Counted from the first letter of the stretch, positions 9,302 to 57,139 are shown. The stretch: 64,000 nucleotides of DNA from Eledone cirrhosa (GCA_964016885.1 OZ024741.1:345216001-345280000); one strand, 5' to 3'. The notes: generated from the sequence alone by a model not told the origin. Made by a program: numbers and translations.

Positions 9302-10481
9302 TTAAAGCCCTTATTGTATAGCAAACCGTGTCACTCTTCTTTCTTGATTTATCATTACTCCAAGTGTAAACTACATAGAAATCACCGCGTACTCGCAGCA
9401 TCACTATGGAAATACCTTGTTGAGTCAAACTTAGCCAAGCGTTGATACTATCCACTAGTCAGAGTACCCTAACTGGACTACATCTAAGTGGACTACCTAT
9501 AACAATAATTTGTTATCCCGTGTGTATATATATATGTAGTTTAAGATGGCAATATGGACGAAACATATTTCGTCCATATTACCATCTTAAACTTTGTTTG
9601 CAGTAATCACATAGCCTGCTTCGTTTCTTGTGATTTTGAATATATATATATACTAGCAGATTTACCCGAAGATGCTCGGGGTTTGAAATTATGCTAAGAA
9701 TATACAGCTAGGAAGTAAAAGAACATTATTTGTCCCCAACCTGTCAAAATAAGCAGAAGTCTTCAATAATTAATGCAAACGAATATATTTTGTGAAAAGG
9801 TTATCTCCCTTTTTTATAAGGATTGTCAATAAAGTTTGTATCTCCCTTACATCAATTTTTCTACCGATAATTTTGATAGCGATTTTTTATTGCTCAACGT
9901 GGGTCGATTTGAAAAATGTTTGTGATGTGACAATCTTAGCGACCTGTGCAACGTGCACAGAAAATTTGGTCAAATTCAGTTGGTAATTGTGAAAGCCTTA
10001 TGCATGCAAAGTTGTACACAGACACACACACATCCTCGCTTTTATATATATATATATATATATATATATTAGTAATCACACAGCTCCTTTCGTTTCATAT
10101 CATTATATATATATATATATATATATATATAATGTGGAGAGGAAGCACACGAGTTAGGATATATATATATTTATATATATATATATATATATATATATAT
10201 ATATATATATATATATATATATATATATATATATATATATATGAAAACGGAGAAAAAGACGATTATGAGGAAGAAAAATTTTTTTTTTTTCCTTTTTTGT
10301 TTCTCTCTCTCTCTTTTCTGGGTTAGAAAAGGATTAAAACGAAATGTTTTACTTTGTGTGAAGTGTTAAGGTATTAGTTGATTTATTTATTATTTAACAA
10401 TGGCATTTATTATTCTTTCTGCACCTTCTGTTTAACATGTGCGACACCACACTAATACTATCATTTGATAATGCACACTAT

Positions 10482-10518
10482 CATTTGATAATGCATATAA
10501 ATGCTGAAACCGGTAATA
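10482..10518 (+). ncRNA. Hammerhead-like motif (U3:A8 core) at the centre of the 10241-10717 inverted repeat
   Basis: TTGATAA(10485)-tGCATataaATGCt-GAAA-CCGGTA^; stem I weak. Confidence 0.55.
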
Positions 10519-10756
10519 GACAATAATTAAATATATAAATAAATAAATAAACGCCATTGTTAAATAATAAATAAATCAACTAATACCTTAACACTTCACA
10601 CAAAGTAAAACATTTCGTTTTAATCATGTTCTAACCCAGAAAAAAGAGAGAGAGAAACAAAAAAGGAAAAAATATATTTTTCTTCCTCATAATCGTCTCT
10701 TTCTCCCTGTTTTCATATATATATATATATATATATCTAAGGCGGGTAAAATTCAG

Positions 10757-11290
10757 CATTCTCGTGCAGCACCCATCCACCATCTGAGTGAGTTTCTTGG
10801 TCAGTGTCCAAGTCTCAGACCCATACAGCAGCACAGACTCCACTACAGCAATGAAGAATTGTATGCGCCTTGCACTGGAGAAACACCAGGACTCTGGCTT
10901 TACTGTAGCACCCACTCAGAGCAGGAGAGTTAGGGCGAAAAAGGTATCGGATGCTGAATTTGCCGACGACATAGTTTTGGTGACAAATACAGTGAAGGAG
11001 GCAGAGGATTTGATGCGGGAGGTTGAGACTGTGTCGATGAGTGTGGGGCTGAGAATGAATGAGACTAAAACAAAATATCTGGTAGAGAATGTTGAGAAGC
11101 CAGAGGGGATCTCTAATGTAGGCGGGAAGCCGCTAGAATTGGTTGAGGGCTTCCTGTATTTGGGAGCAAAGATTGGGAATACGGAAGATGATGTGGTTGA
11201 GAGGAAGCGCAAGACCTGGGCGGCGTGCCACAGCTTGAGATCGGTGTGGAAGTCGCACGTTCGTAGAGACCTGAAAATCCGCCTCTTCAT
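10757..11290. mobile_element. RTE-clade LINE reverse transcriptase fragment with internal inversion
   Basis: Plus strand 10860-11290: EFADDIVL...GLRMNETKT...FLYLG...VWKS...LKIRLF; minus strand 10857-10757 continues IAVVESVLLYGSETWTLTK. Confidence 0.85.
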
Positions 11291-11327
11291 ATATATATAT
11301 ATATATATATATATAGGAACGAGTAGG

Positions 11328-11423
11328 ACCCCGACGGCTGAGCTCAAGCCGTTTCGACGGCTAATTCTGGACTAAATGGACATTTTTATCCTGGTATTTG
11401 AATAGCCGAGCTTCTCAAGGGGT
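11328..11423 (-). ncRNA. Type-I hammerhead ribozyme, U3:A8 core
   Basis: Reverse complement: ACCCC-TTGAGAA-GctCGGCTA...TAGCCGtC-GAAA-CGGCTtgagctcAGCCGTC^-GGGGT. Confidence 0.8.
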
Positions 11424-12165
11424 AATTCCATATATGGTAAAAGTGATTGTCACAAGGATTGGTCAAAAGTTTGTTGTTGAGACATATATTTCGTACGAGC
11501 ATTTATGTAGTTTGCACTAGAATTTTTGTATCGTGGCGGCACCCTTAGAGATAGTATTAGTATTCTTTTTCGGGATTCTGAATTATTATTTCGTATTAGT
11601 TTATTTTTTTGCACTAGGTGGTTGCTGGCCTTGTGCCTGGGGTAGAAACCTTTATTTATTATTTCGTGGTAGTTTCTTTAGTATTTTGGCCCCTCACTTG
11701 TTGACCCGTCACCGTAAGATATACTCGGTTTATTACTTATATCTCTTAAAAGGGTCTCATTATAATTCCGTCCCATCTAGTAAACCTTTCTTTAGCCTAG
11801 CAGCACCAGTGAGAGACTTGATAGCTGTCCTTAGGTCGTAGTAACCAGAAATTGTTTTGTTTTTTTTACTTTTAATTGCTTTTTAACACTCTCGGTATTT
11901 TTCTATATATTTACCCCATATTGTTTTACTTATTGTTTCGACTTCCTCCCCCTCCCCCTCCCTAGTATCTTCTTTGACCTCATGCCCAGCTGTAGTCGGC
12001 ACTATCAACGCATGACTGGGTCTCCTCCACCCCCTCTCCCTCTTTCTCCTACTGGCAGGTTCAGCTACCCCTTCCCTCCACAAATTGCCATGATAGAATT
12101 ATTATATCTCAACAACAAACTTTTGATCAATCCTTGTGACAATCACTTTTACCATATATGGAATT

Positions 12166-12261
12166 ACCCCTTGAGAAGCTCGGCTATTCAAATACCAGGA
12201 TAAAAATGTTCATTTAGTCCAGAATTAGCCGTCGAAACGGCTTGAGCTCAGCCGTCAGTGT
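12166..12261 (+). ncRNA. Inverted partner copy of the 11328 hammerhead (stem I damaged)
   Basis: ACCCC-TTGAGAA...GAAA(12234)CGGCTTGAGCTCAGCCGTC^AGTGT; further copies at 43786-43882 and a half-copy fold-back at ~49450-49530. Confidence 0.65.
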
Positions 12262-54345: not shown

Positions 54346-54721
54346 ATTTATATATATATATATATATATATATATATATATATATATATATATATATATA
54401 TATATATATATATATATATATATATATATATATATATACATATATATACACGCACATATATATACACACACACACACATATATATATATATATATATAGA
54501 CAACAATATTAAGATATGACAGATTTTACTGGTGCACGAATTTTGCGCTACCCCGTGTGTTTATGTATGTGTGTGTGGCGAGCTTCCAACAAATATATAA
54601 CTTGAGATAGGGTGAGATCGAACGCCAAACCATGAGTTGGCGAAACCACACAAACATACTTGAAGATGTAATTTTACGAGATATATTAAATGTTATTCTT
54701 TGCTTTCTCCATAAGTCGCAT

Positions 54722-54930
54722 GATTGGCAGTGTTGGTAGAGCATCGGTCTCGTACATGGTTTGCAGCATATAGTTGTGACCCTTTACGTTATGAATTCAG
54801 TTCCCGCCGAAATTAATTTTGCCTTTTCATCCTTACGAGGTCGATAAAGTAGCAGTAACATACACGGGTTGATTTAATCAATTTCCGCTCCCTTAAAATT
54901 GTTGGCCTTGTGCCTAAATCAGAAACCATT
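54722..54930 (+). mobile_element. SINE family A, diverged
   Basis: TTGGCAGTGTTGGTAG...TTTGCCTTTTCATCCTTACGAGGTCGATAAA...GGCCTTGTGCCTAAATCAGAAAC. Confidence 0.8.
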
Positions 54931-55987
54931 CTTTGGTTCTTCATACGTTGTCTTACAAATGGCAGCTTACAAATAATTAGATACGTAACTTACATGATAA
55001 AAAAAAACGGTCTAATATGTAAGCCTAATATATTTTTATATTAAGGCTTAAATACAGAAATATGATTTCATATGTTGATAGATAACTTGAGCAATGCAGG
55101 TGGAAGACCAGTCGTGTATGACTGTGTCAATCATGGCATGATGTGTAGTAATTTCTCACGCTTACATACTAATTTTGATACACACACACGCTAAAAAGAG
55201 CTCACACACATGGGATAATCATATATATATATATATATATATATATATGAGTCCCGAGTTCAATCGGGGGTAACCACAGTTAGTAAGGTACTCAATAGAT
55301 TAGTAGAATGTAAACATACATCATATATATATATACACATAGGGATATATATATATATATCTAATATGTATATACATATATGTGTGTGTGTATATATATA
55401 TGTATATATATATATATATATATATATATATATATATATATATATATATATATATATACATACACACACACACATGTATATATATATATATATATATATA
55501 TATATACATACACACACACACACACACACACACACATGTATATATATATATATATATATATATATAGCAATTCACAAACAAGATGAATATATTAAAAAGT
55601 CAATCTCATATACAGAGTGAGCCAGTGTAACAACAGTAACAAAAGAAACGAACGGAAAATAATTTGTGAATCAATCAATCAAATAGTAAATACTGATCAG
55701 TAATGAGGGTGCTTCTTTACTCTGCCTCCAAATGCAGGAGTCGATGACTCATCAGGCGCTAAAGTAGGTGTTTCGGGCCCGTCCACCGCGACACCAGAGC
55801 TACTTAAGTACCGTCACCATCACCACCCTCACCACCAGCAACACTACCACCACTACCACTACCACCACCACCATCTTATGTGGGCGACAAAACTCCTGCA
55901 AAATAGCACAATCTTTGGTGAGTTCGATGTTGTGACTGTCATATACATGTCCGCCCGTCCCTTCAATCTATCTTATTTCTCATTCTT

Positions 55988-56023
55988 TCTTCTGATGAAG
56001 GACTAGCGTCCGAAACGTTAAGA
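55988..56023 (+). ncRNA. Minimal hammerhead motif
   Basis: TCTT-CTGATGA-aGGACtagcGTCC-GAAA-CGTT^-AAGA; degenerate relative at 37309-37344; downstream tails repeated at ~56165 and ~56980. Confidence 0.65.
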
Positions 56024-56516
56024 CACACACACACACACACACACACACACACACACACACACACACACACACGCACACACACATATATATATGTGTGTGT
56101 GTGTGTATATATATATATATATATATATATATATATATATATATATATAAATAAAGGCTAATATCTGAAACGTTAAGACTCTTTCTACTATATCAAGCGT
56201 TAAACTAATATATATTTTCATTGTACTGTATCGTTTCCCTGTGTTGATTTTTTTCGTTTACTCTTCACTTTTATACATAGATATATATACATATATATAG
56301 AGATGTATATATATATAGATACATATATATATATTATTTTTTCTTATTGATGTTGTGACTCCGTCATATACACGTATACATGTGTGTATGTGTGTGTATG
56401 TATGTGTGTGCGCGTGTGTATATATATATATATGTATATATATATATATATATATATATATATATTTATATACAATGATATTAAATAAATGGAAACTATA
56501 TTTATAAAACTATATT

Positions 56517-56767
56517 TATTCTATTATATATATTTCAAGGCTACCAAAACTTTGGTACGCTCTCATCAGATAAAATACAAAGTTTGTTTTATAAATTTTG
56601 ATATAACCAAGAAAATATACCTTAACGGTTCAAGTTTTTCTTGAAAAAAATTGAACCGTTAAGGTATCTTTTCTTGGTTATGTCAAAATTTATAAAACAA
56701 ACTTTGTATTTTATCTGATGAGAGCGTACCAAAGTGTTGGTACCCTTGAAATATATATAATAGAATA
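56517..56767. ncRNA. Divergent hammerhead pair, 56517-56577 (-) and 56707-56767 (+), in a ~340-bp fold-back
   Basis: TATTTTAT-CTGATGA(56715)-gagcGTACCAAagtgTTGGTACcctt-GAAA-TATATATA^-ATAGAATA; related to the 16088 motif. Confidence 0.8.
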
Positions 56768-57139
56768 AATATGGTTTTATAAATATAGTTTCCATTTATT
56801 TAATATCATTGAATATTATACTCCAGAAAAGCTGTCGAGTGCTCTGAATCAGTTATAAACATTTATATTTGTTGAATTACCAACAAATTGAATATCCCTT
56901 TTGCTTATATATATATATATATATATATATATATATATATATATATATATATATATATATATATATATAAGGGCTAATATCTGAAACGTTAAGACTCTTT
57001 CTAGCGTTAAACTAATATATATTTTCATTGTACTGTATCGTTTCCCTGTGTTGATTTTTTCGTTTTCTGTTCACTTGTATACATAGATATATATACATAT
57101 ATATAAAGATGTATATACATAAATATATATATAACAGTC

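Follow-up and report, generated by a model that had tools for sequence, protein, structure and literature searches.

In a 64,000-nt stretch of the Eledone cirrhosa genome (GCA_964016885.1 OZ024741.1:345216001-345280000; the full 64 kb is called the window hereafter), we found that inverted repeats nearly always follow a simple rule, in which one arm stops at a short 3′ end and the other at a tailed 3′ end. By sequence, these repeats are head-to-head, 5′-truncated copies of Penelope-like elements (PLEs), of Hydra and Neptune type by motif, with their 3′ ends in (TA)n. The pairing of one short with one tailed fold-back arm is new and is quantified here across 11 families. Most probably, both ends of a cut in (TA)n would prime reverse transcription on one sense RNA, one at the short-end site and one at the tailed-end site, and the resulting complementary DNAs (cDNAs) would then be joined.

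The window is AT-rich and contains more than 150 (TA)n runs. We searched the 3.0-Gb genome for copies of the 11 families, which carry letter names here, and sampled 20-30 genomic copies of each, scoring the best 40 of 159-1846 candidates per search. Forty of the sampled copies were extended outward, and 396 loci in total entered the count of strand switches.

One short end and one tailed end

Each family has two fixed 3′ ends, a short end (S) and a tailed end (T), which lie 33-171 nt apart. The distance is 39 nt in family C, 70 in F, 80 in G, 90 in B, 92 in A, 98 in I, 99 in D, 108 in J, 171 in K and approximately 33 in E. Both sites are internal to the tandem unit; for T this is apparent because two loci (L331 and L332) read past it into the 5′ untranslated region (UTR) and the open reading frame (ORF). 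Eight of nine S sites are followed by AT-rich bases able to pair with a primer that ends in TA.

Scored by hand, 115 of 121 events combine one S and one T arm (260 loci from 10 families; window loci, 14 duplicate loci, single copies and events without a visible outer end were omitted). The proportion is 103 of 109 without family I, for which the query forced a T arm; the family I and E queries contained the long end, which fixed one arm and left its partner free. Automatic scoring of eight families, which overlaps the hand-scored set, gave S/T pairs in 150 of 155 cases (37 of 192 junctions were unscorable) and, for events not used as seeds, in 45 of 45. In a held-out set of spliced family B insertions, fetched after the rule had been noted, all 29 scored events are S/T (of 49 events, 16 single and 4 unscorable ones were left out). 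Family E has 15 of 16, with five further events left out for unclear outer ends. In the window the count is also 15 of 16, two of them provisional (9538 and 49670), and the fold-back at 2667 is unscorable. Two apparent T/T cases, L111 and L303/304, went unscored, as their sequence continues into a further unit whose end is lost.

An initial annotation of the window had described the arms as unequal and slightly diverged, and they are: identity is 90-100% over 26-260 aligned bases. It overlooked a systematic difference between them, a 3′ tail of 33-171 nt on one arm that falls mostly outside the coordinates it gave.

Head-to-head orientation

All 15 window repeats that can be oriented have a minus left arm and a plus right arm when mapped to natural family copies, in agreement with the initial annotation; 9538-9593 is unoriented, and family C2 was oriented by homology to C. 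The sense strand was taken from linked ORFs in families A, B, C, G, H, J and K, from an ORF remnant and a hammerhead core in D, and from hammerhead-like cores in E, F and I. Putative hammerhead ribozymes, proposed earlier as the guide to orientation, serve in part of the families. Pattern matching gave cores in A, D, E, F and N, and inspection by eye gave variant cores in B, I and K; none was found in C, H or J, and Rfam gave no hammerhead at the gathering score. The matches that Rfam returned by E-value were microRNA models on simple repeats and palindromes, which we rejected.

Convergent and divergent pairs are far from equally frequent. Across the 396 loci, after approximate de-duplication, same-family strand switches without (TA)n between them are head-to-head approximately 200 times and tail-to-tail twice; a further 17 tail-to-tail arrangements lie across (TA)n, that is, they are neighbours. 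Among the first 100 listed exact matches to a family B 28-mer, pairs less than 5 kb apart are head-to-head in 13 of 13. Head-to-head joins of different families number 2 among those listed, against the approximately 200 of the same family, and one of them is convincing: at L027:1194-1670 a tailed G arm is joined to a short A arm with no (TA)n between. In L036, C is mixed with C2, likewise head-to-head.

Most 3′ ends face (TA)n as the initial annotation had stated, with two departures: the end at 3499 is cut by another element and that at 50025 adjoins a repeat resembling a short interspersed nuclear element. The 3′ ends of different Penelope families pile up around the same (TA)n runs (for example, L002, L023, L104 and L189), so that each insertion appears to supply the next targets. 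Such stacking and the 17 tail-to-tail neighbours would fit a separate origin of the two arms, by independent insertion into the same (TA)n run, or a DNA rearrangement that later altered a single copy; but these origins leave unexplained the approximately 200 head-to-head joins without (TA)n, nearly all within one family, as well as the S/T pairing and the sharing of alleles and splicing between arms described below. We regard them as very improbable.

Arm extents and junctions

The 5′ extents of both arms are known for 105 events. On the 5′ side the S arm extends beyond the T arm by more than 15 nt in 43, and the T arm beyond the S arm in 36; in the remaining 26 the two stop within 15 nt of one another (permutation predicts 17.4, p=0.001; with families A, C and D set aside, 8 of 55 against 3.1 expected). 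The T arm lies wholly within the tail in 10 of the 105, and in these the arms do not overlap. Of the 28 short T arms in family B, 10 end between -7 and +15 relative to S.

These extents bear on self-priming, or snap-back, in which a cDNA or antisense RNA would fold at a palindrome and copy itself and the endonuclease would trim one end. The available parts of PMC3846280 put forward self-priming, and those of PMC8557442 a tail formed by endonuclease resolution. Snap-back is consistent with the palindromes that mark junction hot spots in C and D, with the excess of near-symmetric joins, with the shared alleles and with the 36 of 105 events in which the T arm contains the entire S arm. In 43 of 105 events, however, the arm that lacks the tail has additional 5′ sequence, and in 10 pairs there is no overlap. 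Snap-back fails for such mutually exclusive arms because a self-copy cannot hold sequence absent from its template; where each arm has sequence that the other lacks, one is therefore not a copy of the other. Nor does snap-back account for an intron removed at sense-strand GT-AG ends in both arms. We consider it improbable as the general explanation, although it may still explain some symmetric events.

Of 112 central junctions, 82 were usable (3 were unreadable and 27 lay at reference edges), and 51 of these have an overlap of 0-10 nt. Microhomology exceeds the null expectation, with a mean of 2.6 nt against 1.0 nt in simulated joins and an overlap of at least 4 nt in 17 of 51 junctions against 5% of simulated ones. 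The window's own junctions are unbridged by independent contigs or reads, which would fit a long-read fold-back or assembly artefact. Against this, the arms are 0-10% divergent and have different biological end sites; many distinct joints of the left and right arms of family A are present in short-read contigs (15 of 44 listed); and two runs of another study contain a strand-switch joint of family F in their raw reads, as does one contig set. A second, palindromic joint in those reads could be a ligation product. An artefact thus seems next to negligible as an explanation.

A probable common template for the two arms

Across 67 events, 283 family-polymorphic sites were compared between the two arms, which agree at 251 of them (170 expected). 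Agreement is strong in families G (60/60), I (53/56) and D (75/82).

Splicing provides a second marker. The 3′ UTR of family B carries an intron (20506-21391, plus strand, in the window) that is retained by the majority of genomic copies and spliced out of a small minority: exact genome matches number 51 for the spliced junction and 3357 for the unspliced acceptor, with patterns of 35 and 28 nt, respectively. In the spliced events in which both arms cross the intron, both are spliced in 10 of 10, with three allele patterns, and the arms agree at 42 of 44 sites in the nine that were aligned. The window fold-back at 2667-3499 is a further case, in which the 3′-UTR intron is gone from both arms and a private base at the splice junction is common to both. 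An inverted partner accompanies 33 of the 49 spliced family B insertions. Locus L359, where the inverted arm is deleted differently across the intron, was left out of the spliced set. Spliced copies are as diverse as unspliced ones (4.8% versus 4.6%, the unspliced set having been picked by likeness to one query) and are polymorphic at shared sites, which is only suggestive that they are not one single lineage. The intron is also a natural marker for template choice and for intron retention in Penelope elements.

Taken from genomic copies, the shared alleles and splicing point to one template lineage, within which one molecule and sibling molecules are indistinguishable from DNA. The main rival to our reading retains priming at two ends and places it on two separate RNAs, either one for each subunit of a dimer or two units of a tandem transcript; the combination of S and T would be imposed by the asymmetry of the complex. 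Two sibling RNAs in an asymmetric dimer would explain overlapping arms without strand displacement, and T does lie within a tandem precursor. A dimer is predicted for PAc, the Poseidon enzyme of Anolis, in the available text of PMC11167929. The joining of arms from different families in L027 and L036 and the weak allele sharing in A, C and F also fit two RNAs. Against them stand the 10 of 10 events with both arms spliced despite the rarity of the spliced junction, the shared alleles at 60 of 60 sites in G, 53 of 56 in I and 75 of 82 in D, the family B T arms that stall at S, and the 10 non-overlapping pairs. On this evidence we think two RNAs unlikely.

Proposed mechanism

In the mechanism that we favour, two-ended priming on a single RNA, the endonuclease would cut both strands in (TA)n. 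Of the two TA-ending 3′-OH groups, one would pair at T, the distal site, and one at S, which is proximal and AT-rich. The enzyme primed at T would either stall at or before S, leaving non-overlapping arms, or displace the first cDNA, leaving overlapping ones. Homology of 0-10 nt, in many cases at a palindrome of the element, would serve to join the free cDNA ends, and the second strands would be filled by repair. That both ends of a break prime reverse transcription, with central joining of the cDNAs, had been suggested in the initial annotation. The S and T ends, the mutually exclusive arms, the T arms confined to the tail and the junctional microhomology, all of them features of genomic copies, support that suggestion, which had missed the asymmetry of the tail and the signs of a single template.

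Several points weigh against this mechanism. The rule has exceptions: five T/T and one S/S among the 121 hand-scored events, one more S/S in the automatic scoring, one S/S in family E and, in the window, the fold-back at 38346, in which both arms are at the long end. The seeds, being the best-scoring copies, were non-random. To account for L027 and L036, either a second template or a subsequent deletion is needed. The overlap of most arms on the template calls for strand displacement, and outside family B no pile-up of T arms at S was seen. An apparent insertion, rather than microhomology, is present at 31 of the 82 usable junctions. Allele agreement is weak in A (40/52, 30 expected) and absent in C (5/11) and F (5/9), and the sharing itself could be mimicked by gene conversion between arms or by sibling RNAs of one locus. 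All of the evidence consists of fixed genomic copies, and no empty alleles were seen in independent contigs and reads.

Families and clade placement

A single ORF with reverse transcriptase (RT) and GIY-YIG domains is linked to the repeats, as in endonuclease-bearing PLEs, and the copies have the pseudo-long terminal repeat (pseudo-LTR) or partial tandem organization, inverted 5′ copy and optional tail of such elements. The family C ORF matches two Pfam models, RVT_1 at E 3e-6 and GIY-YIG at E 2e-4, in each case slightly below the curated cut-off. In B, G, J, K and H we identified both domains by motif; Pfam gave no match on pieces of the Hydra-type ORFs of B and G. The family B ORF has 29 relatives of 640-810 amino acids.

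Using the motif definitions in section 11 of PMC8557442, as far as the available text goes, we would assign families A, B, D, G, J and K to the Hydra clade and C and H to the Neptune clade, by motif alone; the clade names are motif-based because no tree against reference elements was made. The Hydra features are a CxCX5C linker, DKT, an RWK-like motif, the lack of CCHH and a (TA)n target, all of which we found: CNCRNRVDC and SDKT in B; CNCPDGSIC, SDKT and RWR in G; SDKT and RWR in J; and CNCRNPTAC in K. Families A and D were assigned through linked remnants of Hydra-like ORFs. The Neptune features, a CX2-5CxxC linker and CCHH in the C-terminal endonuclease, are represented by CDRPNCGIC and C..C..H..H in C and by CGRPNCGIC in H.

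No ORF was found in families E, F and I. Family E consists of 440-nt and family I of approximately 547-nt tandem units with hammerhead-like cores, and both look retrozyme-like (L181-L210 and L311-L330). They follow the S/T rule just as the ORF-bearing families do, and family E may have a third end approximately 83 nt beyond the long end (L183).

Fold-backs and other features of the window

All 16 inverted repeats of the initial annotation were recovered by self-comparison, in place or a few bases off (Table 1). The annotation had given 18237-21891 as one inverted repeat; it is two abutting fold-backs, at 18237-21563 and 21582-21890. Two more, at 1124-1271 and 16290-16810, had been overlooked.

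Table 1 Positions of fold-backs and of the family B intron in the window
Feature	Coordinates	Minus arm	Plus arm	Remarks
C2 fold-back	1124..1271	T	S	Additional
Family B fold-back	2667..3499	S, 2667-3076 (one internal jump)	3077-3499	
Short fold-back, unsampled family	9538..9639			Unoriented; right arm 46 nt longer, to (TA)n, tail-like
Family H (Neptune-type) fold-back	10131..10714	T	S, 10409-10714	
Family G (Hydra-type) fold-back	11316..12353	S, 11316-11486	T, 11487-12353 (tail 80 nt)	
Family C (Neptune-type) fold-back	15114..15473	T, 15114-15285 (tail 39 nt)	S, 15281-15473	
Inverted repeat between (TA)n runs, unsampled family	16290..16810			Additional; unoriented
Family B (Hydra-type) fold-back 1	18237..21563	T, 18237-18526 (tail 90 nt)	S, 18527-21563	
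GT-AG intron, family B 3′ UTR	20506..21391			Plus strand; retained here
Family B fold-back 2	21582..21890	S, 21582-21618	T, 21619-21890	Spliced form
Family E fold-back	38346..38769			Both arms stop at long end; sole S/T exception in the window
Family D fold-back	38831..39337	S, 38831-39035	T, 39029-39337 (tail 99 nt)	
Family I fold-back	46541..46743	S	T (tail 98 nt)	
Family J (Hydra-type) fold-back	47391..47672	T, 47391-47588 (tail 108 nt)	11 nt short of S	
Family F fold-back	48038..48306	T, 48038-48197 (tail 70 nt)	S, 48199-48306	
G-like subfamily fold-back	49374..49527	T	S	
Family C2 (C-related) fold-back	49670..50025	T, 49670-49877	S, 49884-50025	Ends defined from window copies alone
Family K (Hydra-type) fold-back	53768..54138	S, 53768-53855	T, 53856-54138 (tail 171 nt)	
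Family F fold-back 2	54160..54348	T, 54160-54299	S, 54301-54348	
Family A (Hydra-type) fold-back	56468..56905	S, 56468-56643	T, 56646-56905 (tail ~90 nt)	

The minus T arm of the family H fold-back comprises tail (10131-10158), a TA run and then 10243-10411. The internal (AT)n run of this tail (10131-10243) has expanded here to more than 80 nt and, because of this expansion, the tail is hidden from simple alignment. In the family C fold-back the S arm extends further 5′ than the T arm. The plus S arm of the first of the two abutting family B fold-backs holds a broken ORF with RT and GIY-YIG, which runs to 20389, and both arms of the family D fold-back have hammerhead cores by pattern match. 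Family N, which is Hydra-like and has a hammerhead core, is present at 3500-4632 (minus) and 34561-35290 (minus). The first copy cuts the 3′ end of the right arm (3077-3499) of the fold-back at 2667, and the second faces a family C copy across (TA)n.

At least 17 long hairpins are encoded in these 64 kb, and they could be a source of double-stranded RNA. The initial annotation had put them forward as potential substrates for ADAR or Dicer, a hypothetical role that would require transcription across the two arms followed by editing or dicing. For the family A fold-back (56468..56905), the predicted RNA hairpin has an energy of -241 kcal/mol (z -31). This fold-back adjoins the 3′ side of a single-exon C2H2 zinc-finger ORF (Pfam; 57140-58552, minus), approximately 235 nt beyond its stop. 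The first AATAAA on the zinc-finger strand lies inside the nearer arm, so the transcript may end before the second arm. We rejected edited RNAs as templates: copies have no excess of A>G on the sense strand (6.5 per 1000, against 12.0 for T>C).

Other retroelements are present. A 1174-amino-acid ORF of a non-LTR retrotransposon (24165-27686, plus; Pfam RVT_1 and zf-RVT), with a C terminus that we take to resemble a restriction-like endonuclease, is followed by a broken related copy (27963-31748, plus). An RT fragment at 10740-11288 (plus; Pfam RVT_1), presumably from an RTE-like long interspersed nuclear element, ends at the (TA)n run next to the family G fold-back. At 5170-6130, 6390-6760 and 39440-40340 there are long arrays of (TAG/CAG)n and (CTT)n, together with a tandem repeat of 40-50 nt.

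Relation to known systems

PLE insertions with an inverted, 5′-truncated copy are a published architecture, as the initial annotation had said. The available parts of PMC3846280 report head-to-head inverted pseudo-LTRs as the most frequent form, with palindromes at junctions and a tail on one inverted end, and propose self-priming on an antisense template; those of PMC8557442 describe the inverted copy, a tail at one end, a bias towards (TA)n and intron retention. The tail may already be shown on either arm in Figure 2 of PMC8557442, whose section 15 treats the formation mechanism as undefined and an open question. As far as these accounts go, the insertions studied here resemble theirs in the inverted 5′-truncated copy adjoining the 5′ end, the palindromes, the single tail, the (TA)n target and the retention of introns. 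They differ in that the tails are 33-171 nt here and 30-40 nt there, the one-tail rule is counted here across 11 families, and the data argue against self-priming.

In vitro, according to the available text of PMC11167929, purified PAc cuts and extends both strands of an AT-rich target and uses two internal start sites, the interval between which corresponds to the tail. Cutting and extension of both strands and two start sites that define the tail would be common to that reaction and to the one deduced here from genomic sequence. With PAc, however, start sites did not differ between the strands and homology to the primer was absent, whereas here the two ends use different sites and eight of nine S sites are AT-rich and could pair with a TA primer. 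We found no model of inverted copies in that text.

A further analogy is with L1 retrotransposons. In L1 twin priming, reportedly described by Ostertag and Kazazian in 2001, both target ends prime on one RNA and yield a centrally joined 5′ inversion. The second start in L1 is variable, the arms usually do not overlap and the outcome is a minority one. The insertions here would share with L1 the use of both target ends on one RNA and the centrally joined 5′ inversion. In contrast to L1, the second start is fixed, the arms mostly overlap into long hairpins and 33 of 49 spliced family B insertions have a partner; the non-overlapping arms that characterize the L1 form, with the T arm wholly in the tail, are seen in only 10 of 105 events. 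A flanking target-site duplication, the other mark of the L1 form, would be hidden within (TA)n. Insertion would thus appear to work like twin priming, in a form other than that of L1. L1 twin priming is cited in the available text of bioRxiv 2024.12.14.628481.

Families E and I resemble the non-LTR retrozymes described in the portion available of bioRxiv 2026.07.22.740005, being tandem units of 440-550 nt with hammerhead-like cores and non-autonomous by appearance. Unlike those elements, they are dispersed, have (TA)n as their target and obey the S/T rule in their fold-backs. The available portion of PMC9977147 contains nothing on fold-back geometry. Our literature search, which did not cover older work, returned no proposal of twin priming for Penelope elements and no count of the one-tail rule.

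On balance, we lean towards twin priming as the normal way in which Penelope elements of the Hydra and Neptune types insert, together with their retrozyme-like passengers: a dimer would cleave the two strands of (TA)n and, using two hard-wired start sites, copy one RNA, tail and inverted repeat would arise in one event, and thousands of hairpins would have been seeded in this way. The geometry, the (TA)n target and the optional tail were known; what is new is a testable mechanism with sequence evidence. The S/T rule, the exclusive arms and the shared splicing would make the tail and the inversion products of the same two-ended reaction, with sense RNA as template, which addresses the open question of how the inverted repeats and tails of Penelope-like elements arise. 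The rule also makes a sharp prediction for the existing PAc system in vitro, as presented in the available text of PMC11167929.

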